A stretch of 64,000 bases of DNA, from the NCBI GenBank assembly GCA_046758085.1, contig JBHHZP010000001.1, positions 3,471 to 67,470 of the forward strand, given 5' to 3'. Of the stretch, positions 47 through 16,256 are shown one piece after another. A program made the position numbers and the translations under genes. Position 1 is the first letter of the stretch, and each line of letters starts with the position of its first letter. Below the pieces are notes generated by a model. That model saw only the letters and a list, made by a program, of their open reading frames with translations, did not search any database and had not been told where the DNA came from. This DNA is from Acidiferrobacterales bacterium. Its GTDB lineage: Bacteria; Pseudomonadota; Gammaproteobacteria; Acidiferrobacterales; SPGG2.

Positions 47-397
47 TTACCTAGCCGCGATAACGGCAATCTCAACATCGAACTGTGGAAACGCCAGCCT
101 GGCCTCGATGCAGGCACGTGCTGGCGCGTTCCCGGGATCGGTCCAGGCGTCCCACACGGCATTCACTTCGTCGTAATAGCGCATGTCGCTGAGCCAGATC
201 GTAGCCGACAACAGCTTTGATTTGTCGGTACCCGCCTCGCCGAGCAACGAGTCTATTCGCCTCAGGATGTTCTGGGTCTGCTCGGTGACGGTCACGTCCG
301 GCGCCGTGTCGGCAACCTGACCGGCGGTGTAGACCGTGTCCTGGTGAATCACGATCTGGCTCATGCGTGGGCGGGTGTGAAAGCGCGTGATAGTCAT
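47..397 (-). CDS. RidA/YjgF-family (Rid) protein, 116 aa
   Basis: Complete ORF. Its size and motifs (VYTAGQV near the N-terminus, ARACIEA...VEIAVIA at the C-terminus) are typical of the YjgF/RidA fold. Assignment is from memory of the family. Confidence 0.75.
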   Translation of the reverse strand: MTITRFHTRPRMSQIVIHQDTVYTAGQVADTAPDVTVTEQTQNILRRIDSLLGEAGTDKSKLLSATIWLSDMRYYDEVNAVWDAWTDPGNAPARACIEARLAFPQFDVEIAVIAAR

Positions 398-511
398 TGG
401 CGAGTTGTCTCCTTTGCGTGTTCGGAACGCTTAGGGCCGGCGAGTGTAGGCGACGCAAGCCGTGTGAGCAATTAAGCATGCATTGTTCCGGGGCAGCGGT
501 ATGCCAGCGTA

Positions 512-763
512 CTACCCGCCCTTCAGAATGGTGCCGACGGTGGCGTAGGTCGAGACACAATAAGGCACAAAATAGGTTAATACCATCTTGAAATAATCAG
601 TAGCAGTTAACTCCGCGGCGATGATCCTGTCGGTATAGTTGATCAAGACCAGGATGGTGCCAACTAACAGCCCAACCTTGATCGACCGCCCGACCACGTC
701 GCGCCGCAGCGCCGTGTGGCACCACTGCCGTACGGCGTCATGATTTCCGTGTATGCCTGACAT
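512..763 (-). CDS. NrtS-like small membrane protein (about 83 aa from ATG 763; track ORF extends to TTG 808)
   Basis: RSIKVGLLVGTILVLINYTD ... LTYFVPYCVSTYATV resembles the small nitrate/nitrite transporter NrtS family. Start is uncertain and there is no strong SD. Confidence 0.55.
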   Translation of the reverse strand: MSGIHGNHDAVRQWCHTALRRDVVGRSIKVGLLVGTILVLINYTDRIIAAELTATDYFKMVLTYFVPYCVSTYATVGTILKGG

Positions 764-955
764 TTCGCTGTATAAGCAAGACCGCCGCCGTAGCTCACTT
801 GCGATCAACTCTATTCTAACCCGATCTGATCCGGTATGGTGTTGGCTCGGCGCGGTTTATTGCACCATAGTCATGATTGACACGATTGAGCTGAACCTGG
901 TTTATTGAGCGACTCTATAGAGCAGCGACGATTATTATAAGCCGCAGGTGGCGCA

Positions 956-1417
956 ATGGCACACGGCACTGTTATCGGGATCTATACGGCTTTGACCAGG
1001 GAAGCCGCACTCGATTATCGCGATGAAGTACGGGCGGTGCCCCGAAAAGGTCTCGTGGACGATCGTTACCATGATGGTTCCGGCACGTACTCGAATGATC
1101 CGGATCCGGACCGCGAGCTCACGTTGATCGAACTTGAAAAACTCGAGGCGTTAAAAATCGATTTCGACGTCGAGTTTTCGGGGGCGGAGGCACGCAGAAA
1201 CATTCTTACACGTGATGTTTCGCTGAATGAGCTTACCGGTGTGGAATTCTATATCGGTGAGGTCAAGGTGCGGGGTATCCGCCTGTGTGAGCCTTGCGCC
1301 CATCTGGAGCGACTGACGGGCAAGAAGGTGGTGAAGGGACTTGTGCACAAGGGCGGCCTGCGCGCGCAGATACTGACGGAAGGTATTATTCACGTCGGCG
1401 ACCGTATTGTAATCTAA
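956..1417 (+). CDS. MOSC domain-containing protein, 153 aa
   Basis: RGLVDDRY ... NILTRDV ... RLCEPCAHLE ... GGLRAQILTEG matches the MOSC beta-barrel with its conserved Cys. SD aggtgg lies upstream of ATG 956. Confidence 0.8.
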   Translation: MAHGTVIGIYTALTREAALDYRDEVRAVPRKGLVDDRYHDGSGTYSNDPDPDRELTLIELEKLEALKIDFDVEFSGAEARRNILTRDVSLNELTGVEFYIGEVKVRGIRLCEPCAHLERLTGKKVVKGLVHKGGLRAQILTEGIIHVGDRIVI

Positions 1418-1492
1418 TCCTGGTAGTTATCGCGCCCGTGCGATACGGTTCGACATCGGCTTGGCGGGGGCGCAGAATGGAATCGTAATCCG

Positions 1493-1511
1493 CCGGTATC
1501 GATAATACCGG
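1493..1511. promoter_or_regulatory. Perfect palindrome ccggtat-cgata-ataccgg upstream of the MotA/ExbB-like operon (possible operator)
   Basis: 7-bp arms read directly from the sequence, 29 nt upstream of ATG 1540. Function is inferred only from position. Confidence 0.3.
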
Positions 1512-1539
1512 TAAGGTAGCGGCTTCGGAGACGATTCGC

Positions 1540-2241
1540 ATGGCGCTTGCATCAGAGTGGTGGCGAGGCAGTGACAACACAAGCGGCACCGATAACGCCG
1601 GTTCGCCCGGCCTGCTGTATCGCTACCTGCTGGTGTTGCGCTTTGTGTTGGTCAACATAGTTGCCATCGCGCTGCTCGCTGCCATCTACCTGCAAGGCTG
1701 GCTGGACGACGCACTGGTCGGCTACACAGGCTGGCTATCGCTCGCCATATTTGCTGTGTTTGCGTTCGGCATGATTCTTTGCACCGCCAAGATCTGGCGC
1801 GTGAGCACAGAGCTCAATGATGTGCGAGCAGGTGCGCCCAGCGCAACTTCGCGTGCCGGCAAGTACCTAGCTACAATTGGCGACCGACCGGCGGAAGGCC
1901 GCTCTCTCAGCGCGAATCTGTTGCGCCTGCGAATCATTAATTACATTGCTATCGTCCGCCACTTCGCTAACACACTGGTTTTTCTTGGGCTGGTGGGCAC
2001 GGTCATAGGTTTTATCGTCGCCCTTGCCGGAGTAAACCCGGAGCTATCTGCGACCGTCGATAATGTTGCACCGATGGTGGCAACACTCATTAAAGGCATG
2101 TCCATTGCACTTTATACCACCCTGATCGGTGCCGCGCTGCACGTATGGTTGATGATGAACTATCGTATTCTCGCCACCGGCACGCTCCATCTGTTCAACA
2201 CCATTGTCGAACTGGGGGAACACCGTGTGGGACGCCGATGA
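1540..2241 (+). CDS. MotA/TolQ/ExbB-family proton-channel protein, 233 aa
   Basis: Two N-terminal TM helices plus a C-terminal helix pair with FLGLVGTVIGF and IKGMSIALYTTLIGAAL, the family signature. GGAG lies 9 nt before the ATG. Confidence 0.8.
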   Translation: MALASEWWRGSDNTSGTDNAGSPGLLYRYLLVLRFVLVNIVAIALLAAIYLQGWLDDALVGYTGWLSLAIFAVFAFGMILCTAKIWRVSTELNDVRAGAPSATSRAGKYLATIGDRPAEGRSLSANLLRLRIINYIAIVRHFANTLVFLGLVGTVIGFIVALAGVNPELSATVDNVAPMVATLIKGMSIALYTTLIGAALHVWLMMNYRILATGTLHLFNTIVELGEHRVGRR

Positions 2242-2824
2242 GTTTGACGGCGACGCGGCCGGCACTGTATTCCGCGACGTCCTTATGCTGGCATTGGTCG
2301 GGTTCGTGGCCATGGTGATTATGCTGCTGCCGCATCTGAGCAAATCACAGGAGCAAACCGAAGAGCATAAGGCGCCCGGCAACGTGGTCGTTGAGATTCA
2401 CTGGCCGAATGGGCTGCCGGTAGACGTCGACCTTTGGGTACAAGCACCGGGCGATGTACCCGTTGGTTTTTTCAATCAGGGCAGCCGCATCTTTAACTTG
2501 CTGCGTGACGACCTGGGGCTGGAAGGCGATGCCACCGGGCAGAACTACGAGGTTTCCTACAGCCGCGGCATTCCCGCTGGCGAGTATATCGTCAACGTGC
2601 ACATGTATGGCCCGTTGCCCGCGGGCGTGACGGTGCCCGTAACGGTCGTGGTCAGCGTGCGCCAGAAGTACGATACGCTGCGGCAGGTATTGCAGACTGG
2701 GGTGGTGCTCAAGCGCCGCAACCAGGAGGAGACCGCATTTAGGTTCAAGCTCACCGAGACCGGAGAGCTGGTGCCCGGAAGTGTGACAACGCTCAGGCAA
2801 CGGCTGGTCACCGCCTCGTCGTGA
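2225..2824 (+). CDS. Membrane-anchored protein with an ExbD/TolR-like TM helix and an unassigned beta-rich periplasmic domain (about 199 aa; track start TTG 2204)
   Basis: TVFRDVLMLALVGFVAMVIML resembles the single Asp-containing ExbD/TolR helix. The remainder (VVVEIHWPNGLPVDVDLWVQAPGD...GEYIVNVHMYGP) is not ExbD-like. GTG 2225 is preceded by ggggga and overlaps the upstream ORF. Confidence 0.6.
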   Translation: MWDADEFDGDAAGTVFRDVLMLALVGFVAMVIMLLPHLSKSQEQTEEHKAPGNVVVEIHWPNGLPVDVDLWVQAPGDVPVGFFNQGSRIFNLLRDDLGLEGDATGQNYEVSYSRGIPAGEYIVNVHMYGPLPAGVTVPVTVVVSVRQKYDTLRQVLQTGVVLKRRNQEETAFRFKLTETGELVPGSVTTLRQRLVTASS

Positions 2825-3342
2825 TGGAAACACTGATACTGATCTTCGCCGCGCTTATTGCCATCGCCGCGCTGCTCGCGAGCATCGCCATCTGGGCGCC
2901 GCGGCGCACCCGCATACGGGCGAGTGCCGTAGTGATTACCGCGCTATTTATCCCACTCGGCTATCTCGGGCTGACCGAGGTCTTGAGCCAGCCCAAACCG
3001 ATGGAGCATGAGTGGTTCAAGCGCCATGTCGACGAGGCGACCGTGCTCGGCATGAGTGTCGACGAAGGCAAAGCCATCTACCTCTGGCTCCGGCTCGATC
3101 GCTCGCTCGAGCCGCGCTATTACGTGCTGCCATGGCAGGCGCGAGTGGCCGAGAAGCTGCAGAATCTGATCGACGAGGCGATCGAGAAGCACGGCATGGT
3201 CAAGATCAGGAATCCGTTTTCACGGCGATCCTTCGCTGACCTCGGAGACCTCAATGCCGAGGTGATATTGCCAGCGCCGTTGCCGCTCAAGCCACCACCG
3301 CCACCGCCGCAGTATTTCAATCCACGCGAGCAAATGATCTAG
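2824..3342 (+). CDS. Two-TM membrane protein with a Pro-rich C-terminal tail (PLPLKPPPPPPQYF), function unknown, about 172 aa
   Basis: Stop/start overlap TGATG at 2822-2826 couples it to the upstream ORF. It has two hydrophobic helices and no recognisable TonB C-terminal domain. Confidence 0.6.
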   Translation: METLILIFAALIAIAALLASIAIWAPRRTRIRASAVVITALFIPLGYLGLTEVLSQPKPMEHEWFKRHVDEATVLGMSVDEGKAIYLWLRLDRSLEPRYYVLPWQARVAEKLQNLIDEAIEKHGMVKIRNPFSRRSFADLGDLNAEVILPAPLPLKPPPPPPQYFNPREQMI

Positions 3343-3409
3343 GCATGATGGCAGACAGCGAACGACGTCGGCGGTTACTTCTCATCGCAATTGAATCGGA
3401 GATGCGCGC

Positions 3410-3898
3410 ATGTTGCTCGAAGGATCATGCCACTGTGGGGCTGTGTGCTTCCGTGTACACTCATCCCACCCTTATCCCTTCAACCTGTGTTATTGTTCGA
3501 TCTGTCGCAAGACCGGCGGCGGCGGTTACGCCATCAACCTGGGCGGTGAATACGCCACGCTGAAGGTGGAGGGCCGCGAACACGTGCGCGTGTATCAGGC
3601 ACGTATTCGTGATCCCGATAGCGGGGAGATCAAACGCAGTCCCGCGCAGCGTAACTTTTGCGCGCTGTGCGCCAGCGCGTTGTGGGTATGGGATCCGCAA
3701 TGGCCACAGCTCGTACATCCGTTCGCATCAGCTATCGACACCGACTTGCCGATACCGCCAGAGCGCACACACTTGATGTTGAACTCCAAGGCATCGTGGG
3801 TGCAGCTATACGGTGGGCCGCGGGACAAGCACTGTCCCGGCTACCCGGAGGAGTCCATCGCCGCGTGGCACGAGCGCCTGGGACTGGTTGCCACCTAG
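3410..3898 (+). CDS. GFA-family (CENP-V/glutathione-dependent formaldehyde-activating-like) zinc protein, 162 aa
   Basis: GSCHCGAV ... CYCSICRK ... FCALC Cys clusters are typical of the GFA fold. GGAG lies 8 nt upstream of ATG 3410. Confidence 0.75.
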   Translation: MLLEGSCHCGAVCFRVHSSHPYPFNLCYCSICRKTGGGGYAINLGGEYATLKVEGREHVRVYQARIRDPDSGEIKRSPAQRNFCALCASALWVWDPQWPQLVHPFASAIDTDLPIPPERTHLMLNSKASWVQLYGGPRDKHCPGYPEESIAAWHERLGLVAT

Positions 3899-4204
3899 CA
3901 GGGTCTTGAAGAATACCGTGGCACCGGTGCAACAGCGATGAATGGCGAGGACGAAAAGACAAGGCAGTTCGCGCGATAGCCTGCGTGGGCGAGCGGCACA
4001 AAAACTCTGTCGACACGCATAAAAAGTATTGGGACAATGTCTGTAGGGCCTACATTGGGGGGCGTGGCCAGGCGATGCCCCCGGCCACCGATGGCGCGTG
4101 TCATCAAGGCGAATGTCCCAAGGGCTGAAAGCAATCACATACGGTGCGCCCCCACGATCGACACTTCACAGGACCCGCCATCGACGCAGGTAAAGGAGGC
4201 GACA

Positions 4205-4810
4205 ATGTCACGGTTCGCAGCGCTGCGCAGTCACGCGCTAGTTATTGTAACTGCGTTGCTAATATTGCCCGGGGTTTCCGCAGCCACGGGCCAGGTAGAT
4301 TTCGCAACTACCGTGAGCCAGCTGGGCAACCAGGATCATTACCGCGACAAACGCCCGCAGGAGCGCGTCGAGGTGTCGTTGCCCGGGACGCTTTACGCGC
4401 CACCTATTACAGTGACGGTCGTTGGGAACAAAGATGCCGACCGTAGCACCTTGCTTGGCGCGGTGGCGTCCGACTACTCTGCCTGGCGCAACGACAACGC
4501 AAAATGGATCCTGAGCAACTTCGTGCCTGAAGATCAGCAGGGACTGAAGAAATTTCTCGCCAATGAAGAGCTGCGCAGGGCAAACAGCATGATTTTCTCG
4601 CCGGACCGGACCATGGAGGTGTGGGGGATTGTCAAATATAAAGGATACGGTCTGGTGCTGTTCACCTATGACAACACCCGCAAGTTTGGCGCGGTAGCGA
4701 CCTTTCGCCAGGTCGGCGACGAATGGAAAAGAACCAACGCGTTGTCTGGGGATCGCGTGTTCGATGTCGTGTGGAGCGCGTTCCGCTCGGGGGACGTGAC
4801 GAAAAAGTAG
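4205..4810 (+). CDS. Secreted protein of unknown function, about 201 aa
   Basis: ATG 4205 is preceded by aaaggagg. The N-terminus MSRFAALRSHALVIVTALLILPGVSAATG looks like a Sec signal peptide. No family recognised. Confidence 0.6.
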   Translation: MSRFAALRSHALVIVTALLILPGVSAATGQVDFATTVSQLGNQDHYRDKRPQERVEVSLPGTLYAPPITVTVVGNKDADRSTLLGAVASDYSAWRNDNAKWILSNFVPEDQQGLKKFLANEELRRANSMIFSPDRTMEVWGIVKYKGYGLVLFTYDNTRKFGAVATFRQVGDEWKRTNALSGDRVFDVVWSAFRSGDVTKK

Positions 4811-4933
4811 CCTCTTATGTTCACAAACGCATTGCACACGGCGGAGTGATACCAGACATGGTCGGCGGCAGGCGGGGCGGCGCGGGCGAATAGCCCGATC
4901 ATCGGACTGGGCGCACAAGAAGTCATACCCGCC

Positions 4934-5176
4934 TTGAACGGCGATATGCGTCGCGCTATCACGTCGCTGATGGAAGAGCTCGAGGCGATCGACTGGTATA
5001 ACCAGCGGGTCGATGCCTGCAAGGATCCAGAGTTCAAGGCGATTCTCGCCCACAATCGAGACGAAGAAAAAGAGCATACGTCCATGGTGCTGGAGTGGAT
5101 CCGGCGCCAGGACGAGACTTTTTCCAGGGAGCTGAAGGACTACTTGTTTATGCGGACACCCATCGCCCACGGTTGA
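4934..5176 (+). CDS. Encapsulated-ferritin (EncFtn)-like protein, 76-80 aa, lacking a C-terminal extension
   Basis: LMEELEAIDWYNQRVDA ... ILAHNRDEEKEHTSMVLEWIRR closely parallels my recollection of Rhodospirillum rubrum EncFtn (MEELEAVDWYDQRVDA ... LAHNRDEEKEHAAMTLEWLRR). Start is TTG 4934 or ATG 4946. Confidence 0.7.
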   Translation: MNGDMRRAITSLMEELEAIDWYNQRVDACKDPEFKAILAHNRDEEKEHTSMVLEWIRRQDETFSRELKDYLFMRTPIAHG

Positions 5177-5184
5177 GCGGCCAA

Positions 5185-5341
5185 CTGCGGAACCTGGTCG
5201 ACGAGGCGATCGAAAAGCACGCCCTGGTAAAGATCAAAAACTCGTTCTCGCGCAAGTCCTTCGAGAATCTGGGCAGTCTAATGCCCGGGTCGTGTTACCG
5301 CCCTCACTGCCAGTGAAGCCACCACCCACGCCCCGGCGCAG
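5185..5341 (+). pseudogene. Frameshifted remnant paralogous to the 3' end of the gene at 2824-3342
   Basis: The nucleotide stretch is colinear with 3157-3312, roughly 70 percent identical by eye. RNLVDEAIEKHALVKIKNSFSRKSFENLGSL compares with QNLIDEAIEKHGMVKIRNPFSRRSFADLGDL. A 1-nt deletion at ctaatgcc (versus ctcaatgcc) breaks the frame before the Pro-rich tail. Confidence 0.7.
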
Positions 5342-5464
5342 GTCAGCGGGTACGCGGGCCCCGCGACAAACTGGGGGTTGCCGCATACAAAAAGCGCATG
5401 GCGCGCCGCCAATTTTTGCGGCTGGCGCGGCCACGCGCTTACAGTGGAAGGACCCAGCTTGCGT

Positions 5465-5815
5465 CTAGGACGTCGCCTTCTGGGCCGGTCGCTGCTCGAG
5501 GATGGACCAAACGGCATCGCCCCCGACCAGCAGGCCCACGATAATGTGGTTCCACGCCGCCATGGTCTGATCATAAAAGCCCAGCACAAAGGGCGAAATG
5601 ATCAGCCACAGCCCGAGGACGAGGTTGACCCATTCTTCCCATACCTGCGGTTTGGCCAACGCCGCACCCGCGAAGACCACAACGCCTATGCTGAGGATGT
5701 AGGCGTTCCACGCGGCCATGCCGGCAGCGTCAGCATACTGCAGAATGAAGGGAGACAGAAAAAGCCATACCCCGAGTACAAGCGTTACCAAGTCTTGCCA
5801 TCGTCTGTCTTTCAT
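5465..5815 (-). CDS. SPW-repeat membrane protein, about 116 aa (from ATG 5815)
   Basis: Two repeats of W..L.LG.WL..SPF.L with four predicted TM helices. Start chosen at MKDRRWQDL. Confidence 0.65.
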   Translation of the reverse strand: MKDRRWQDLVTLVLGVWLFLSPFILQYADAAGMAAWNAYILSIGVVVFAGAALAKPQVWEEWVNLVLGLWLIISPFVLGFYDQTMAAWNHIIVGLLVGGDAVWSILEQRPAQKATS

Positions 5816-6067
5816 GTGACACCTCCGTTCTGCGAGTCCGTATATTGGACATCTACTTAGACAGGCAAGAGCCGTCATGTTTCCGGGCCCCGGGGCAAGC
5901 GGCGGTGACGGCGTACACGGTGCCCGTGGGCGCCGGTAGCAGAGCCCTTGACGGCGTTTCGGCAGCCGGGGATCGTGTGCGACAGACGGTCGGCGAGCTC
6001 GGGGCAGGCTCCCCGGCAGCGGGTGCGGCGGACCCGCTGGAGAGTGCCCCGACGCCTGCCGCGGGTG

Positions 6068-6385
6068 CTACGGCCGCAACCGCTTCAGGAAGACCCGCAT
6101 CTCCTTCGCCGCCTGCACGTCACCTTGTCCCTCGGCCACGCGGATGCCGACCTCGTAGGCGGCTACCGCCTCGACCGTGTCTCCCCCGGCGGCCAGTGCC
6201 TTGCCCAGGAGCTTCCAGGCCGCCGAGTAATCGGGATCGAACTCAACAGCCTTACGCAGGTGTAACACGGCCTTGTCAAGCTCTTTGAGCTTGAGGAACT
6301 CATTCCCCAGCCCGTAGCGCACCAACGCATTGTCCTGGCCGCGCGCCAGCATGCTCTCGAGATTATCGATCAACCCCATGTCCAA
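6068..6385 (-). CDS. Small tetratricopeptide-repeat protein, about 103-105 aa
   Basis: TPR-like helical pairs (LGNEFLKLKELDKAVLHLRKAVEFDPDYSAAWKLLGKAL). Start is TTG 6385 or ATG 6379. Confidence 0.65.
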   Translation of the reverse strand: MDMGLIDNLESMLARGQDNALVRYGLGNEFLKLKELDKAVLHLRKAVEFDPDYSAAWKLLGKALAAGGDTVEAVAAYEVGIRVAEGQGDVQAAKEMRVFLKRLRP

Positions 6386-9569: not shown

Positions 9570-10931
9570 CTATTTTGTTCTTACGGACTTCGGATTAACA
9601 CCAAGGCTCTTAAGCTTGCGGTAAAGGTGTGTCCTTTCCATATCGGCAACGGCAGCGAGCTCACTGACGTTTCCATTAGTCCGTTTAAGATGATATTCCA
9701 GGTACGCTTTTTCAAACTGGTCACGAGCCGCACGTAACGGAAGCATGAATGCTGCTTCCGGCAGCGTTTGGCTCGTCGCAGGCTGGCTCACCAGCGCCTG
9801 TTCCACCTCGGCGGCGCTGATTTCAACGCCTCGATTCAGTATCAATAGCCGCTCAACCATATTTTTCAACTCTTGAATGTTTCCGGGCCACGAATAGTTG
9901 CGCAGCTCGTTCATGGCCGAGGTCGAGAACTTGCGGTATGGCAGTTGCTCGTGCTCTACCATCCAGTCACAGTAGAAGTTGACGAGCTCGGGCACGTCTT
10001 CATGGTGGTCTCGCAACGGTGGAATAACTATGGGCACCACATTCAAGAAGTAGTACAGGTCTTCGCGTAGCCGACCGTCGTTGACGGCCACCTGCAAGTC
10101 ATGGCTGCTGGTGGCCACGACCCGGACGTCCAGCTCGAGCGACTCATCGCTGCCTACGCGCTCAAAACGTGTCTCTTCGAGGGCCCGTAACAGCCGCGGC
10201 TGCAGTGCAGAATCGAGGTCGGCAATTTCATCCAGCACCAAAGTGCCGCCACGTGCCTGCTCGAGCTGTCCCGGGAAAACGCGGTTGCCCTTTCGAATTC
10301 CAAAAAGCTGGGCGGTGACCTCATCAACTGGTATCGCAGCGAAGCTTATCTCGACCAGGGGCTGGCGTGATCGCACGCTTTTGTAATGCAAGTAGCGTGC
10401 AGCGATTGATTTACCACTCCCGGGCTCGCCGGTAATAAGCACACAGCTATCTGTGGCGGCGACGCGCTCGAGATCATCGCGCAGCTGTTGCATCACCGCA
10501 CTTTTGCCGGCCGGGATCGCGACCGTTGGTGCGCTGCGCTGAGTACCCTGCGGGGTCTGCTGCATGCGCTGCAAGGCGCGCTCCAGCGTTACGAGCAGCT
10601 TGCCCATTGACAAGGGTTTTTCGATGAAGTCAGTCGCGCCCAGTCGTGTGGCCTCGACCGCCGTATCGACGGTACCGTGGCCCGACATCATGACCACTGG
10701 CACGTCAGGTGTGCCAGAACGCGACCATTCCTTCAGCAACGAGATCCCGTCCGTGTCCGGCATCCAGATATCCAGCAGTACGAGATCGAGGCGCTCATTC
10801 GCATAGGCCTCGCGCGCCGTCGTGGCATCTTCCGCCGTTACGACCTCGTACTGCTCGTCTTCGAGGATTTCCTTGACGAGCCGGCGAATTTCCGGCTCGT
10901 CGTCAACCACGAGAATGCATTCGCCTGTCAT
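9570..10931 (-). CDS. ntrX: Two-component response regulator NtrX (REC + AAA+ + HTH), 453 aa
   Basis: It has a receiver domain (LVVDDEPEIR ... DLVLLDIWMPD), Walker A GEPGSGKS and a C-terminal Fis-type HTH. The GAFTGA loop is replaced (FGIRKGNRVFPG), as in NtrX. It is paired with ntrY. Confidence 0.8.
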   Translation of the reverse strand: MTGECILVVDDEPEIRRLVKEILEDEQYEVVTAEDATTAREAYANERLDLVLLDIWMPDTDGISLLKEWSRSGTPDVPVVMMSGHGTVDTAVEATRLGATDFIEKPLSMGKLLVTLERALQRMQQTPQGTQRSAPTVAIPAGKSAVMQQLRDDLERVAATDSCVLITGEPGSGKSIAARYLHYKSVRSRQPLVEISFAAIPVDEVTAQLFGIRKGNRVFPGQLEQARGGTLVLDEIADLDSALQPRLLRALEETRFERVGSDESLELDVRVVATSSHDLQVAVNDGRLREDLYYFLNVVPIVIPPLRDHHEDVPELVNFYCDWMVEHEQLPYRKFSTSAMNELRNYSWPGNIQELKNMVERLLILNRGVEISAAEVEQALVSQPATSQTLPEAAFMLPLRAARDQFEKAYLEYHLKRTNGNVSELAAVADMERTHLYRKLKSLGVNPKSVRTK

Positions 10932-13249
10932 GCACGCTTCTCCCGTAAAGTATCTGCCCTGGCGTTCCCGCGGGCGCCTTCGCCGGCGGATAAAGTCTTT
11001 TCACTGACTGGCAATCGAATGGTAATTCGTGCGCCGCTGCCCGCTATGTTCTCGGCGGTCAACGTGCCGCTATGTTCCTCCACGATCTTCTTGACGATCG
11101 CCAACCCGAGGCCCGTGCCCTTGTCATGGCTTGTAACATAAGGCTCAAACAGGTGGTCCATAAGTACCTCGGGAATGCCGGGACCGTTGTCTTGTATGGT
11201 GAGCACAGCGGTCGCGCCGCGCACATCCTGCACGGTGCGCGTGCCGATGCGGATGACCGGCTGCTCGCGCCCTGTCAGGGCCTGACGCGCGTTCAGTAGC
11301 AAGTTATGCAACACCTGCCGCAGGCGACCCGCGTCGGCGGTAATAGCAGGAAGCTTCGTATCGAGATCGAGCTCGATCACGGGCGCCGCCGGCGCTGGCG
11401 TGATTTCGCCGCTCGACTCAGCGTCCTGCGGCAACGGGCGCGTGGAAATGTTGTCGCCCGCATTGTAGAGCTCGACCACGTCTCGAATCAGGTCATTGAG
11501 ATCCATTGCCGTTGCTTGTACCTGCACACTACGAGCGTAGTCGGAAAACGCGTTTACCATGGATTTCAGCGCTTCTACCTGCTCAACGATGGTGCGGGTG
11601 GCGCGATCCAAGGTTTCGTGTTCGTTGTGCCCAAGCTGGACCATGCACTTGTGACGGATGCGCTCAGCCGACAGCTGTATCGGCGTGAGCGGGTTCCTGA
11701 TCTCGTGCGCCAATCGTCGCGCAACCTCGCGCCAGGCGGCATCACGTTCCGCTTGAATTAGGGCGGTGACGTCGTCAAAGACCACGACGAAGCCGCCTTT
11801 TTTTCGCCGCAGCTTGGGCAGCATCGTCCCGCGCAGCAGCAATGAGCGCTTACCGTGCTGCCCCGGCAGGTTCACTTCGGCCTGCCACTCGCCGCGCCCC
11901 TGCTCGGTGGCGTCGCGTATGGCCTGGCAGAAGCCGGCAAGCTCCGGATGCGACTTGGTAAGGTGCAACAGCGATTTCCCTTCGCTGGGCTGCAAATCAG
12001 CTCGCAGGATATGAGCGGCGGCTGCGTTGTGGGTGCGCAAGTGGTGTCGTTGGTCGAAAGACAACACACCCGAAGACAGGTGTGTCAACACAGTCTCGAG
12101 GTAGGTGCGTTGCATCTCGGCTTCCGCGCGGGAGCGTTTGATCTGATCCTGTGCATCGTGGATCTTCCGGGTCATGTCGTTGAAAGACTGGACGAGCACA
12201 CCGAATTCGTCTTTTCCGGTCACCGGGAGATGCTTGCGATAGTCGCCCTCGGCGACCGCACGCGTGCCGGCCGCCAAGTCTCGCACCGGCGCGACCAGCC
12301 GCCGGGCCGAGAAGATTGCAGCCGACACCGAGATCAACATGGTGAGTAGCGCCACCAGACCAAGCGTCAGCGTGAAACCGAACTTCAGCGGGCCACGCAA
12401 GTACACCAGCTTCTCGTATTCGGCAAATGCCGTTTGTACGCTCTGGCCAAGCTGTGCATAGCGTGTAGGCAGCGGCTGCAGCAGCTGCAGGATGCGCATT
12501 GGGGTACCGACCTCACGCGCGTACACGGGGACCACGACGCGTAGCTGCAAGTCGGTCTTCCCGATCGGGTCGAGGTGGGCGTAGATGTCCCCCTGGCGCA
12601 CCAGCGAAAGAATGGTTTCGCTCGGCTGATCAGGAATCAGACTGCCGGTGTCGGGCCCGGCTTCACTGCTGGAAGCAATGATTGCCCCATCTTGGGAAAA
12701 CAAGGTGATCTCCGAGATACCGTACTTCTCGCGCAGAAAATCGAGCGCGGTCACCGCCAGCTTGTCTGGACTGTCCTGGAGATCCCCCGCCATTTCTTTT
12801 GCCGTGTTCAGCTGGTCTTGCGTGATCGCATCCAGCGCACTACGGCCCACCAATAGTGCATTGTCCAGCGCTTGCCCGGTTTTTACGTCAAACCAGCTGT
12901 CGATTCCCTTGTTTACGGCCTGCAAAGAAAAGACCAGCACCACGGAGACCGGGATGACCGCGAGTAGCACGAACATGCCAAGCAGGCGCACCGTGAGGCG
13001 CGAGCCCATAACCCGTGCTCGATATTGGCTGGCAAGCCGGTAGAGATTAACCAGGATCAGCGTCAGCAGCAGGATAATGCCGAAGATGCTGACGACGAGC
13101 AGAAACGGGTAGAGCCGGCCGGACAGCGCCGAGGATTGTGTCGCCGCATCCATCATCAGCAGCGCACCTAACAGTAAGACCGACAATACTACGAGCGGCA
13201 CGATGCCGGTGGCATAACGTGTTAATGTTGAACGTACCATTCGGTCCAC
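10928..13249 (-). CDS. ntrY: Sensor histidine kinase NtrY (TM-HAMP-PAS-HisKA-HATPase), about 770 aa
   Basis: It has N-terminal TM helices, a HAMP-like segment, the H-box LAHEIRNPLTPI and the G-box GTGLGLAIV. It overlaps ntrX by 4 nt. Start is GTG 13249 or ATG 13240. Confidence 0.8.
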   Translation of the reverse strand: MDRMVRSTLTRYATGIVPLVVLSVLLLGALLMMDAATQSSALSGRLYPFLLVVSIFGIILLLTLILVNLYRLASQYRARVMGSRLTVRLLGMFVLLAVIPVSVVLVFSLQAVNKGIDSWFDVKTGQALDNALLVGRSALDAITQDQLNTAKEMAGDLQDSPDKLAVTALDFLREKYGISEITLFSQDGAIIASSSEAGPDTGSLIPDQPSETILSLVRQGDIYAHLDPIGKTDLQLRVVVPVYAREVGTPMRILQLLQPLPTRYAQLGQSVQTAFAEYEKLVYLRGPLKFGFTLTLGLVALLTMLISVSAAIFSARRLVAPVRDLAAGTRAVAEGDYRKHLPVTGKDEFGVLVQSFNDMTRKIHDAQDQIKRSRAEAEMQRTYLETVLTHLSSGVLSFDQRHHLRTHNAAAAHILRADLQPSEGKSLLHLTKSHPELAGFCQAIRDATEQGRGEWQAEVNLPGQHGKRSLLLRGTMLPKLRRKKGGFVVVFDDVTALIQAERDAAWREVARRLAHEIRNPLTPIQLSAERIRHKCMVQLGHNEHETLDRATRTIVEQVEALKSMVNAFSDYARSVQVQATAMDLNDLIRDVVELYNAGDNISTRPLPQDAESSGEITPAPAAPVIELDLDTKLPAITADAGRLRQVLHNLLLNARQALTGREQPVIRIGTRTVQDVRGATAVLTIQDNGPGIPEVLMDHLFEPYVTSHDKGTGLGLAIVKKIVEEHSGTLTAENIAGSGARITIRLPVSEKTLSAGEGARGNARADTLREKRA

Positions 13250-13773
13250 CCGCTGTTGAGGTGCCAGGCGAGCGATGTGTATGCCACCGGGCGCAATGGT
13301 GCCGGCAACGCCTCCACGTCGAGGCTCGCGCGCACGCTCACATAGTATGTATCCTCGCCGTTAGGGAGCTCATCCAGGGGCAGTTTCAGCTCCTCGAGCG
13401 TGCCCATGCCGGCGAGCGCCGCTTGCAGCGACGCAAAGCTCTCGACCGCATCAGGCCGGTGCCCGGCGACGAGATACTGGCGCGATAACGCATGGTAACT
13501 GATCCCGCGCCGCATTACCCAGCTCTGCATGCGACGGTCCCAGATCACCGGCCGCTTGCGGTAGAGACTGATATCAATGATCACGTCGATCGGTATGCCC
13601 TTGCTCAAGGCCTCTTCGACCTTGGACGTCAGCCCCAGTTCCAGGGTCCCCGAGAGCACCAGCTTGCCGTCGGCGACACGCGGTGAGATGCGCGTAACCT
13701 TAAAGTCCGCCTGCGCCGGGAGTGCGCTCAGCACACCGCTGAGGAGCAGCACCGTCAGCCATTTAGCCTGCAT
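13222..13773 (-). CDS. DUF4390-like periplasmic protein, 183 aa
   Basis: It has signal peptide MQAKWLTVLLLSGVLSALPAQA and occupies the conserved position between rsmB and ntrY. Family recalled from memory. Confidence 0.65.
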   Translation of the reverse strand: MQAKWLTVLLLSGVLSALPAQADFKVTRISPRVADGKLVLSGTLELGLTSKVEEALSKGIPIDVIIDISLYRKRPVIWDRRMQSWVMRRGISYHALSRQYLVAGHRPDAVESFASLQAALAGMGTLEELKLPLDELPNGEDTYYVSVRASLDVEALPAPLRPVAYTSLAWHLNSGWTEWYVQH

Positions 13774-13935
13774 TTCTCACCAGCTGCCTACTGTGGGTGC
13801 GTATCTGCCCACAGCGCGTTCGGTTGTGTGCTCAATGCAGTGTAAGCTACGCCTCCGCGCATTTTCTCTCTCGCGCCTTGTCTCGACGGCCATCTCCGCG
13901 CCCTCGCGACGATACGCGGTGAGAAATGCAGGCTA
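13764..13935 (-). promoter_or_regulatory. 18-bp perfect inverted repeat bracketing the rsmB/DUF4390 spacer (candidate long-range RNA helix)
   Basis: 13764-13781 tagcctgcatttctcacc is the exact reverse complement of 13918-13935 ggtgagaaatgcaggcta. One arm contains the rsmB stop codon; the other contains the SD-like GGTGAG and the ATG of the downstream gene. Confidence 0.5.
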
Positions 13936-15270
13936 GGTCTTTCGCAGGCACGCATAGTAAAACCCATCCATATCCTCCTGTCCCGGCAATATCTGGATAC
14001 CTGGGGCTCGTGCTATGCCGACGGGCGCGGCTAATGTCAAAGCCGCCGCATCGCCATGACGGGCCATAAACGCACTGACCTGCTGGTCGTTTTCCGCCGG
14101 CAGCACCGAGCACGTCACGTATAAAAGCTTACCGCCGCTGGCCAGCAAGGACCACAGCCCATCGAGAATGCGCGCCTGTAAGCGCACCAGGCTCTCCACG
14201 ACCGCGCGGCTGCAATGCAGCTTAATATCGGGGTGACGCCGGATCACGCCGCTGCCGGAGCACGGCGCATCCACTAGGATGCGATTGAACGGCACACCGT
14301 CCCACCACTTGCTCGGATCGGCGGCGTCACCCACGATCACCGCCGCCTCCAGTCGCAGGCGCACGAGGTTCTCATAGACAAGCCGGCGTCGTACCGGCTC
14401 CTTGTCGAGTGCCACGATGTGCGCCGTGCCGGCGCAACGCTCCAGAATGTGTCCGAGCTTGCCGCCGGGAGCGGCGCAGGCGTCGAGCACGCGCTCCCCG
14501 GCGTGCACGTCGAGCAACTCGGGCGCTAGCTGGGCCGCTGCATCCTGTACCGAGACGCGGCCCTCGGCAAAGCCCGGTAGTGCGCTGACCGACACCGGCG
14601 TGTCTAGCACCACGGCAGCGCCAAGGCGTGGCACCGGCGTGGCCCGGAGCCCCGCATCGAGCAAGCACGCCAGGTATTCGTCGCGACTGTTCCGCCGCAA
14701 GTTGACCCGCAAGCTCATAGGCGGACGGCGGTTGTTGGCCTCCACAATCGCCCGGTAGTGATCGGGCCAGCTCCGGTGCAGCGCGTCCAACAGCCAGCGC
14801 GGATGGGCACTGGCAAGCATCGGATCGCGGCGAACCTGTTCGAGAAGTGGCTCCTTGTTGCGCGTGAAGGAGCGCAGGCAGGCGTTCAGCAGCGCCTTGG
14901 CCCAGGGTTTACCGAGCACGGTGGTGGCCGCTACCGTCTCGGCGACTGCGGCGTGGGCCGGTACGCGCATGTGAATCAATTGGTAAAGCCCTACCAGCAG
15001 CAAGGCGTGCAGGACCCGGTCGCGGCTCCGCAGTGGCCGCTCAAGCAACTTACGCGCGATATACTGCAACGGCTGGGCCCAACGCAGCGTACCATAGGCC
15101 ATTTCCTGCACCAGCGCAGCGGTGGTGGCGCCGCGCTGGTCGGGCGTAGCCAGGGCGGTTTCAAGGGCCCGGTCGAGCAATCGACTGCCATAGATGACCT
15201 GTTCAACCACGCGTGCCGCGGTGGCACGGGCTTCGCTGGCGGCACTGGGCGCCGTGGGCATAGCCTGCAC
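13933..15270 (-). CDS. rsmB: 16S rRNA (cytosine967-C5)-methyltransferase RsmB, 445 aa
   Basis: It has an NusB-like N-terminal domain, the SAM motif VLDACAAPGGK and catalytic DAPCSGSGVIRRHPD. It follows fmt as in the canonical order. Confidence 0.9.
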   Translation of the reverse strand: MQAMPTAPSAASEARATAARVVEQVIYGSRLLDRALETALATPDQRGATTAALVQEMAYGTLRWAQPLQYIARKLLERPLRSRDRVLHALLLVGLYQLIHMRVPAHAAVAETVAATTVLGKPWAKALLNACLRSFTRNKEPLLEQVRRDPMLASAHPRWLLDALHRSWPDHYRAIVEANNRRPPMSLRVNLRRNSRDEYLACLLDAGLRATPVPRLGAAVVLDTPVSVSALPGFAEGRVSVQDAAAQLAPELLDVHAGERVLDACAAPGGKLGHILERCAGTAHIVALDKEPVRRRLVYENLVRLRLEAAVIVGDAADPSKWWDGVPFNRILVDAPCSGSGVIRRHPDIKLHCSRAVVESLVRLQARILDGLWSLLASGGKLLYVTCSVLPAENDQQVSAFMARHGDAAALTLAAPVGIARAPGIQILPGQEDMDGFYYACLRKT

Positions 15271-15317: not shown

Positions 15318-16256
15318 TCATACCAGGGATTCCCCCGCCGTCAGCCGATGGCCATTGATGAAGGCTTGCGCGGTCAACAGCTTGCCTCCCTCGAGCTGCA
15401 GCCGTCGAATCACGAGCACGCCATCGCCGGTGCGCACGCGGATACCATGCTGGTCCGCGCTCAACACCGTCCCCGGTGCGACGTCCTGTCCCCCGCATGC
15501 GTCCTCGACCGGCCCGATTTCCCAGATGCGAAGCTGGCGGTCGCGAAATCGCGTCTGTGCCACAGGCCAGGGATTAAATGCGCGAACCTTACGCGCAAGT
15601 ACCCGCGCCGGCGCGCTCCAGTCAAGAATGGCTTCCTCTTTGCGCAACTTGGGGGCGTAGCATGCGCAAGCCCCATCCTGCGGCCGCGGAACGATCTGTC
15701 CCTTGGCGAGCTTGCCCAAGGTGTCGAGGAGCAGCGCCGCCCCCAGCGGCGCCAGTCGATCGTACAAGCTCTGCGCGGTGTCGTCCTCATGCACTGCGAG
15801 CTGCTGCTGCGCCAGTAGGTCGCCCGTATCCATACCTTCGTCCATTTGCATGATGGTGATGCCGGTGATCTCGTCGCCGGCCTCCAGGCTGCGCGCGATA
15901 GGTGCGGCACCGCGCCAGCGCGGCAGCAGCGAGGCGTGAACATTGATACCGCCAAATCGCGGAATTTCCAGGACCGCCGCAGGCAGGATCAGCCCGTAGG
16001 CAACCACCACCAGCACCTCGGGGGCCAGGGCCTTTAGCTGTGATGTCGCCAGCGGGTCGAAATTTGCGGGCTGCAACACCGCCAGCCCCAGCTCCAGCGC
16101 CAGCTCCTTGACGGCAGTCATCCTGGGGTGCCGGCCGCGCCCCGCCGGCCGGTCAGGCTGAGTGTAAACGGCCTGGACCGTGTGCTGCCTCGCTTCAACA
16201 AGCGCGCGCAGCGTCGGTACGGCGAAGGCGGGGGTTCCGGCAAAGACGATGTTCAT
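15318..16256 (-). CDS. fmt: Methionyl-tRNA formyltransferase, 312 aa
   Basis: MNIVFAGTPAFAVP ... INVHASLLPRWRGAAPI is the formyltransferase signature. Confidence 0.92.
   Translation of the reverse strand: MNIVFAGTPAFAVPTLRALVEARQHTVQAVYTQPDRPAGRGRHPRMTAVKELALELGLAVLQPANFDPLATSQLKALAPEVLVVVAYGLILPAAVLEIPRFGGINVHASLLPRWRGAAPIARSLEAGDEITGITIMQMDEGMDTGDLLAQQQLAVHEDDTAQSLYDRLAPLGAALLLDTLGKLAKGQIVPRPQDGACACYAPKLRKEEAILDWSAPARVLARKVRAFNPWPVAQTRFRDRQLRIWEIGPVEDACGGQDVAPGTVLSADQHGIRVRTGDGVLVIRRLQLEGGKLLTAQAFINGHRLTAGESLV

Follow-up and report, generated by a model that had tools for sequence, protein, structure and literature searches.

A miniature inverted-repeat transposable element at the rsmB-DUF4390 junction of an Acidiferrobacterales bacterium

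The minus strand of a 64,000-nt stretch of DNA from an Acidiferrobacterales bacterium (the window; contig JBHHZP010000001.1) carries a tightly overlapping fmt-rsmB-DUF4390-ntrY-ntrX operon with two oddities, a 160-nt gap between rsmB and the DUF4390 gene and an MQAK… N-terminus of the DUF4390 protein. At the same junction lies an inverted repeat, the arms of which (13764-13781, TAGCCTGCATTTCTCACC; 13918-13935, GGTGAGAAATGCAGGCTA) are 18 nt long, 100% complementary and 136 nt apart. A first-pass annotation of this DNA had offered two explanations: a long-range RNA helix that occludes initiation of DUF4390-ntrYX until it is melted by a ribosome terminating at the rsmB stop, or the ends of a ~170-bp miniature inverted-repeat transposable element (MITE). 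The analysis described here was concerned with which of these the repeat represents and how DUF4390 is likely to be translated. The repeat is best read as the terminal inverted repeats of a 172-bp MITE in the rsmB stop codon, by which the stop was rebuilt and the DUF4390 start replaced, with reinitiation as the likeliest route of DUF4390 expression (probability about 0.85). The MITE accounts for both the gap and the N-terminus.

The junction with and without the element

The 18-nt repeat is real and far beyond chance. With up to 3 mismatches allowed, the motif occurs at these two places only in the 64 kb, the chance expectation of matches was 0.01, and at least two matches were obtained in 0 of 100 dinucleotide shuffles. 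The first-pass description of the arms was accurate: they are exact reverse complements and unique in the window, the 5' arm on the minus strand opens with the TAG that ends the rsmB open reading frame (ORF; 445 aa), and the 3' arm carries GGTGAG, resembling a Shine-Dalgarno (SD) sequence, followed by the ATG and codons 2-3 of the DUF4390 ORF (183 aa). The element contributes codons 1-3 and the first base of codon 4 to the current DUF4390 gene. Coordinates are collected in Table 1.

The filled site was compared with the corresponding junctions of relatives; the closest database relatives of the DUF4390 protein are labelled Acidiferrobacterales. At locus L124 (protein P0002; DUF4390 93% identical to the window at the amino acid and 94.5% at the nucleotide level) rsmB (2707-4035) overlaps DUF4390 (4001-4576) by 35 nt, and the junction is the exact empty site, GAC-C-TA-AATGG, reading …TGCCTGCAAAAGAC-CTAAATGGCTGACGGTG (over a longer stretch, …TGCGTGCCTGCAAAAGAC-CTAAATGGCTGACGGTG…). 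The window junction, …TGCGTGCCTGCGAAAGAC-C-TA-[GCCTGC … GCAGGC]-TA-AATGGCTGACGGTG…, is the L124 sequence plus 170 nt with the TA doubled. The site is also empty at L123 (96% identical). RsmB ends in …DGFYYACLRKT in the window and in …DGFYYACLQKT at L124, with length and stop position unchanged.

The element itself has the features of a MITE. Its terminal inverted repeats are perfect over 18 of 18 positions including the TA, and at 172 bp it is small and carries no transposase gene, the sole ORF that crosses it being read-through from the old DUF4390 start. The target-site duplication is seen by setting C-TA-A at L124 against C-TA-(170 nt)-A in the window. Many dispersed copies per genome were found in other genomes; the window holds one copy.

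No arm within 4 mismatches was present in the related loci L123, L124 and L127-L139, which were drawn from assemblies and metagenomes; the related loci without any arm at this tolerance number 14. The first-pass annotation had proposed a search for conservation of the arms at orthologous rsmB-DUF4390 junctions, and none was found, about 18 of 20 related lineages being without the element. A scan of metagenomes for relatives returned 16 loci and no further filled junction. The arm was otherwise encountered at the junction of L125/L126 only (P0003; 78% amino acid and 84% nucleotide identity), where it occupies the TA used in the window and the MQAKW start recurs. Among the 120 homologues listed, this start is shared by P0003 only and 119 have no element-derived start; the typical N-terminus is M[GDVA]F[IT]M[RP]A[CY][KR]…, and the remainder have other starts.

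The contig L121 (Logan, same strain) is identical to the window up to mid-element and then ends, and L125 begins inside its copy of the element; contig breaks of this kind are typical of assembly at repeats. Segments of the L125 element are ~90% identical to that of the window by eye, the alignable parts being too short for comparison with the 84% of the flanking gene. We tend to favour separate insertions, one each in the window and P0003 lineages, at one and the same stop-codon TA, because the closest relatives are empty, the arms in the window are perfect, and a copy in a distant genome (L104, below) is as similar to the window's copy as that of L125 is. Alternatively, one old insertion may have been lost by precise excision; the L125 sequence is without the left end.

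The element entered the TA of the rsmB stop (ancestral …ACC TAA ATGG…) and doubled it. As its first base is G, TA+G gives TAG at the same position and RsmB retains its length. The ancestral start of DUF4390, within the last 35 nt of rsmB (AGGAGG-N6-ATG, MGFTMRACKRPKWL…), was in this way cut off from the body of its gene. The ancestral N-terminus of DUF4390 is the 3' end of rsmB read in another frame, and the ancestral start is still intact in the window, but the 170 inserted nt, not being divisible by three, have put it out of frame with the rest of the gene. At its other end the element reads outward GGUGAGAAAUGCAGGC-UA and supplies an SD-like GGUGA and an AUG; the AUG is in frame here, so that the ORF reads MQA-KWLTVLLL… and its signal peptide is preserved. 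With the new start (GGUGAG-N2-AUG) the protein begins MQAK… in place of MGFTMRACKRPK…, and the current ORF, MQA-KWLTVLLLSGVLSALPAQA-DFKV…, retains a lysine together with the hydrophobic core and AQA motif of the signal peptide. From the ancestral ATG a chimeric ORF of 59 codons now runs through the 5' arm and the element's interior; its stop lies 14 nt upstream of the new AUG.

The wider family, its target site and its transposase-bearing partners

An exact search for the 18-mer with one genome per species found it in at least 120 stretches, belonging to unrelated genomes of about ten phyla, for the most part as pairs about 183 bp long. By record title the hosts were Bryobacterales and other Acidobacteriota, Verrucomicrobiota, Planctomycetota, Myxococcota/'Deltaproteobacteria', Gamma- and Alphaproteobacteria, Nitrospira, Dehalococcoidia, Rhodothermales/Rhodohalobacter, Eisenbacteria and KSB1. 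Dozens of loci were present in single Bryobacterales chromosomes (OZ242366.1, OZ241991.1) and in one 'Deltaproteobacteria' metagenome-assembled genome (MAG). The search for further copies of the 172-bp unit suggested by the first-pass annotation was in this way answered by many dispersed copies with the same termini in other genomes; together with the empty site and the transposase-bearing partners described below, they bear out its second explanation, that of a MITE at the junction.

Complete copies were defined as head-to-head pairs of arms with at most 2 mismatches per arm (n = 94). Their modal length was 180-189 bp, with a second class of ~205 bp. The flanks were of the form Y|TA…TA|R (CTAG 47, CTAA 15, TTAG 11, TTAA 7), the bases outside the TA often differed between the two ends, and the sole duplication to fit every copy was the 2-bp TA. 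No target motif wider than Y-TA-R was found. The copy in the window belongs, as a shorter variant, to a subfamily also present in L104, L120, L091 and L125, of which L120 is an Acidiferrobacterales MAG. The L104 element (85-316; a MAG labelled Nitrospira, from Mohns Ridge sediment) shares 89% identity with the copy in the window across 120 nt and has about 60 extra internal nt; a similarity of this order across phyla points to either recent lateral spread of the subfamily or a mis-binned contig. A 257-bp AT-rich copy was noted in the isolate genome of Rhodohalobacter sulfatireducens WB101 (L022, 3524-3780; ends TAGCCTGCATTTCTCACC … GTGAGAAATGCAGGTTA), with conserved ends and an interior that tracks the base composition of the host.

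Long ORFs were sought in the DNA inward of unpaired arms at 120 loci, which yielded two homologous transposases from different phyla, at L001 and L069 (Table 1). At either end of both units 14-18 of the 18 arm bases are present, and these transposase-encoding elements share the ends of the MITE. The transposases matched Pfam DDE_Tnp_1_4 (E = 1e-147 and 1e-151) and the NCBIfam IS1380 equivalog model NF033539 (388 and 399 bits, cutoff 180), and unit lengths of 1689 and 1730 bp with single ORFs of 449 and 481 aa fall within the ~1.6-2.0 kb, single-ORF format of the IS1380 family. As judged from these sequences, the ends of the MITE family match those of IS1380-family insertion sequences. Both full-length units are flanked by TA. 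The duplication of 4-5 bp expected of IS1380 elements was not found: a 4-bp model fails in 47 of the 94 MITE copies, at the window's site and at L069 (TTAG vs CTAG). IS1247, of the IS1380 family, duplicates 5 bp (PMC3281130), and IS1380 transposases are the prokaryotic outgroup of piggyBac (PMC10813416); the likeness of the Y-TA-R target to the TTAA of piggyBac is a resemblance only. In the length of its duplication the MITE family is thus atypical of IS1380.

An IS630 source had been assumed at first from the TA/CTAG target and was dropped once the partners proved to be of IS1380 type. That the element is an IS630/Tc1-mariner-type MITE like the pneumococcal RUP is now very unlikely. The TA duplication and the Y-TA-R, CTAG-favoured target would suit such an origin, RUP and IS630-Spn1 using TA targets (PMC2229807), but the only transposase-bearing elements found with these ends are of the IS1380 family, in two phyla, and no IS630-type transposase ORF lay inward of any unpaired arm at the 120 loci.

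Other candidates for full-length elements, of 1.25-1.6 kb in the Bryobacterales loci L055, L025 and L105, were rejected as nested MITE arrays or as containing an unrelated IS110-like ORF by eye. Arm pairs 1.4-1.6 kb apart, each enclosing one long ORF, were seen at L105 (6551-7981, 318 aa) and L041 (6301-7924, 389 aa); these ORFs resemble IS110-type transposases by eye, and other insertion sequences have probably landed inside MITE copies there. At L001 (117-2082) two MITE starts (117, 173) have a common end at 354, and the IS1380-type element adjoins through the single TA at 353-354. Since the two share this TA, the insertion sequence inserted in a TA flanking the MITE, and elements of these kinds nest and abut.

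The relation of the family to stop codons was measured at 218 arm ends as the presence of an open frame ending exactly on the TA+G triplet. ORFs of at least 200 codons ended in the TA+G frame 45 times, against 18 and 9 in the other two frames (binomial p = 4e-7); for ORFs of at least 300 codons the counts were 32 against 11 and 6. Nine of ten sampled TA+G-ending ORFs were real genes, most with a Pfam domain reaching the C-terminal end, among them a TonB-dependent receptor (ending …LSYRF), a sigma-54 activator, a DUF1501 protein, a carbamoyltransferase and a DUF2817 protein. The family's copies show a preference for positions on the stop codons of real genes. Owing to its initial G the element always regenerates the stop, and in GC-rich genomes the insertion-tolerant Y-TA-R sites are to a large extent stop codons.

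Donation of start codons was considered as a second family-wide habit and rejected, as outward ORFs of at least 80 codons numbered 67 in frame 0 and 84 in frame +1; outward frame +2 is blocked by the TA+R stop and hence gave no control. Such donation is occasional, in the window, in P0003 and probably at L042. At L042 (75-1553) a 492-aa PQQ-like beta-propeller protein starts at the ATG of a MITE arm (MQASRYTFCVLTLL…), with a signal-peptide-like N-terminus (MQASRYTFCVLTLLGLASIPASG…). That the ends of the family were shaped for near-harmless insertion at stop codons of compact GC-rich genomes, with a G that rebuilds TAG, an outward SD and AUG and a helix-dependent restart, is an idea we regard as doubtful; were it true, the rsmB/DUF4390 junction would be an example of a built-in 'translation-neutral' transposon design, and the apparent 2-bp TA duplication a transposition variant new to the IS1380/piggyBac lineage.

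Several known systems resemble the family in part. RUP of Streptococcus pneumoniae (partner IS630-Spn1), an example of the bacterial MITEs that an insertion sequence moves in trans, is likewise small (~100-250 bp), non-coding and present in many copies, shares its ends with an insertion sequence and duplicates TA; it differs in that the partner here is of the IS1380 family, the 18-nt end extends across about ten phyla and stop codons are preferred. The Correia/NEMIS elements of Neisseria are also MITEs, often co-transcribed with their neighbours, with terminal repeats that fold into a long RNA hairpin; they affect how adjacent genes are expressed and in some cases are fused to ORFs (PMC2229807). 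They have no sequence relation to the window's element, in which neither an IHF site nor a promoter was detected and which replaces a start codon and rebuilds a stop codon. The partners are like IS1380, IS1247 and ISEcp1 in size (1.69-1.73 kb) and in a single DDE transposase passing the NCBIfam IS1380 model, whereas characterised members duplicate 4-5 bp and a 2-bp TA is seen in the 94 MITE copies and both full-length ones. A blastn search of PLSDB plasmids with the element gave no match, a full-text search for the arm sequence gave irrelevant eukaryotic primer matches only, and a literature search combining MITE, start codon, stop codon and SD gave nothing relevant. No description of the MITE family was found in the papers searched. 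The family is documented here, with 18-nt ends conserved across about ten phyla, IS1380-type partners, a TA-only duplication and a preference for stop codons.

Translation of DUF4390 across the insertion

A 201-nt minus-strand RNA spanning the junction was folded, as the first-pass annotation had advised, to a predicted -84.9 kcal/mol (z = -3.4) with the arms paired. The spacer hairpin CTGTGGG/CCCACAG that it had noted is present (13814-13808 / 13797-13791) and is predicted to form inside the structure. In a model mRNA of 301 nt the stretch from SD to AUG had a predicted probability of being unpaired of 0.008, the ribosome-binding site being 99% paired, and the predicted cost of opening this site was 13.7 kcal/mol; it fell to ~5 when a ribosome was placed on the rsmB UAG so as to shield the next 9-15 nt. 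GGUGA is complementary to UCACC of the 16S rRNA 3' tail. The spacing between the new GGUGA and the AUG is workable; UCACC is also present in the 5' arm, which is thus a competitor of the ribosome for the SD. No sigma-70-like promoter or intrinsic terminator was found in the element, so DUF4390-ntrYX probably still relies on read-through transcription from upstream, and an Rfam scan of 13000-14800 at E up to 1 gave no match either inside the element or close to it.

On the operon transcript, pairing of the element's ends would form an 18-bp helix in which the new SD and AUG are hidden, and very little de novo initiation would be expected there. DUF4390 and the overlapping ntrY-ntrX would then depend for their expression on ribosomes from upstream. 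Their main source would be ribosomes that initiate at the ancestral ribosome-binding site, translate the 59-codon ORF, unzip the helix, stop 14 nt short of the new AUG and reinitiate. Ribosomes that terminate on the rsmB UAG, opening most of the 5' arm, would serve as a secondary source. On this model termination-reinitiation is the likeliest expression route for DUF4390. The occlusion and melting proposed in the first-pass annotation therefore divide in two: masking of the start and its opening from the rsmB stop are reproduced in silico, and the notion of an evolved device is left without conservation to sustain it. That annotation did not contain the ancestral upstream start with its strong SD, the 59-codon ORF as a more direct means of coupling, or the placement of a stop in the arm as a property of the family.

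Burial of a start by distant upstream pairing and its release by translating or terminating ribosomes recall the coat-replicase coupling of RNA phage MS2, and the short stop-to-start distance (14 nt here) recalls termination-reinitiation systems. The arrangement differs from MS2-type coupling in that it would be a by-product of transposon insertion, is absent from most orthologous junctions and is known from sequence and prediction. It amounts to a natural experiment in which a gene lost its own start and gained a transposon-borne one locked in a helix.

Several points weigh against parts of this interpretation. The 64-kb window contains one copy, its multi-copy status in its own genome being judged from other genomes and from the contigs L121 and L125. 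The 2-bp TA duplication is unlike that reported for characterised IS1380 members, and the IS1380 link is drawn from two full-length copies. The outward AUG of the element is generally not in frame with long ORFs, which makes start donation here an accident of the site. Translation could also begin at an in-frame GTG (13752-13750) that follows the new AUG by 21 nt, and the use of the new AUG, formation of the helix in vivo and reinitiation are what we infer from the predictions.

That the helix is instead an evolved, selected long-range RNA device tying ntrYX output to rsmB translation is extremely improbable. Such a device would be expected to sequester the start, and the SD and AUG are indeed predicted to be buried almost completely, with a ribosome on the UAG cutting the opening cost by ~9 kcal/mol; a second, more distant lineage (L125/P0003, 78% amino acid identity) also has the same arm, site and MQAKW start. 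But both arms are consensus transposon ends known from about ten phyla, the two closest relatives (93-96% identical) have an empty site, the 14 related loci have no arm, and 119 of the 120 listed homologues do not have the MQAK start. The arms are moreover invariant and identical to the family-wide end, so there is no covariation to score. As far as these comparisons of sequence go, the lack of conservation has already largely refuted an evolved device, and the case is a warning against taking transposon ends for riboregulators.

It is somewhat unlikely that the insertion is a recent, mildly harmful polymorphism, causing a polar drop in DUF4390-ntrYX and kept by drift or hitch-hiking. The still perfect arms, suggesting a young insertion, the closest relatives without the element, and the predicted 13.7 kcal/mol, which would strongly cut direct initiation, are all in keeping with it. 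Against it, the downstream ORFs are all intact and overlap as in relatives, the strain was assembled from two sequencing runs with the element junction in the one contig that reaches it (L121), the analogous insertion in the P0003 lineage has likewise kept an intact gene, and the 59-codon ORF gives a route that would preserve the flow of ribosomes. A hairpin acting mainly in RNA processing or stability, with RNase III separating the rsmB and DUF4390-ntrYX messages, is quite unlikely: the 18-bp perfect duplex is predicted to close a structured multiloop, but 18 bp is at or below the usual length for efficient RNase III cleavage, and ribosomes from two upstream frames would often keep the helix open. 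The NEMIS stem-loops of Neisseria, which are proposed RNase III targets, would be the precedent for it (PMC2229807).

Coordinates and further features of the window

Table 1. Positions of the element, its parts, the neighbouring genes and the two transposase-bearing units. Features are in the window unless a locus is named.
Feature	Position	Strand	Size	Details
Complete MITE copy including both TA copies	13764-13935		172 bp (net insertion 170 bp)	Perfect terminal repeats; empty site in relatives; same termini elsewhere
Target-site duplication TA, DUF4390 side	13764-13765			Empty-site comparison; TA consistent in 94 copies
Target-site duplication TA, rsmB side	13934-13935			Completed by the element's first G (13933) to the rsmB stop TAG (minus strand)
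Terminal inverted repeat, DUF4390 side	13766-13781			mRNA 3' arm GGUGAGAAAUGCAGGC; SD-like GGUGAG 13781-13776, AUG 13773-13771
Terminal inverted repeat, rsmB side	13918-13933			mRNA 5' arm GCCUGCAUUUCUCACC; its UCACC mimics the anti-SD
Internal hairpin CUGUGGG…CCCACAG	13791-13815	-
Ancestral SD AGGAGG of DUF4390, inside rsmB	13974-13979	-		6 nt before the ancestral ATG at 13967; used in P0002 (MGFTMRACKRPKWL)
Chimeric ORF	13788-13967	-	59 codons	Ancestral ATG 13967, 5' arm, element interior, TAG 13790-13788; MGFTMRACERPSLHFSPR…THPQ before the stop
DUF4390 gene, current form	13222-13773	-	183 aa	MQAKWLTVLLL…; Pfam DUF4390, E = 2.5e-39
rsmB, 16S rRNA methyltransferase	13933-15270	-	445 aa	Pfam NusB + RsmF-B_ferredox + Methyltr_RsmB-F
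ntrY	10928-13249	-		Overlaps ntrX
ntrX	9570-10931	-		Overlaps ntrY
fmt	15318-16256	-
L001 full-length unit	353-2082		1730 bp	Ends TAGCCCGCATTTCTCACC … GGTGAGATATCCGGGCTA; transposase ORF 577-2022, 481 aa
L069 full-length unit	4694-6382		1689 bp	Ends TAGCCCGGATGTCTCAC … GGTGAGAAATGCAGGCTA; transposase ORF 4898-6247, 449 aa

Translation of ntrY and ntrX would depend on the rsmB/DUF4390 junction. With the insertion in place rsmB and DUF4390 now lie in one reading frame, in which the interior of the element is also open; they are separated by the TAG at 13935-13933 and the TGA at 13779-13777 (inside GGTGAG) only. An 18-nt direct repeat of 89% identity (13671-13688, CGGCGACACGCGGTGAGA; 13907-13924, CGACGATACGCGGTGAGA) ties the subterminal part of the element to the DUF4390 coding sequence (…ISPRVAD…). 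It is longer than the GGTGAGA that it has in common with the arm and is nevertheless probably a product of chance.

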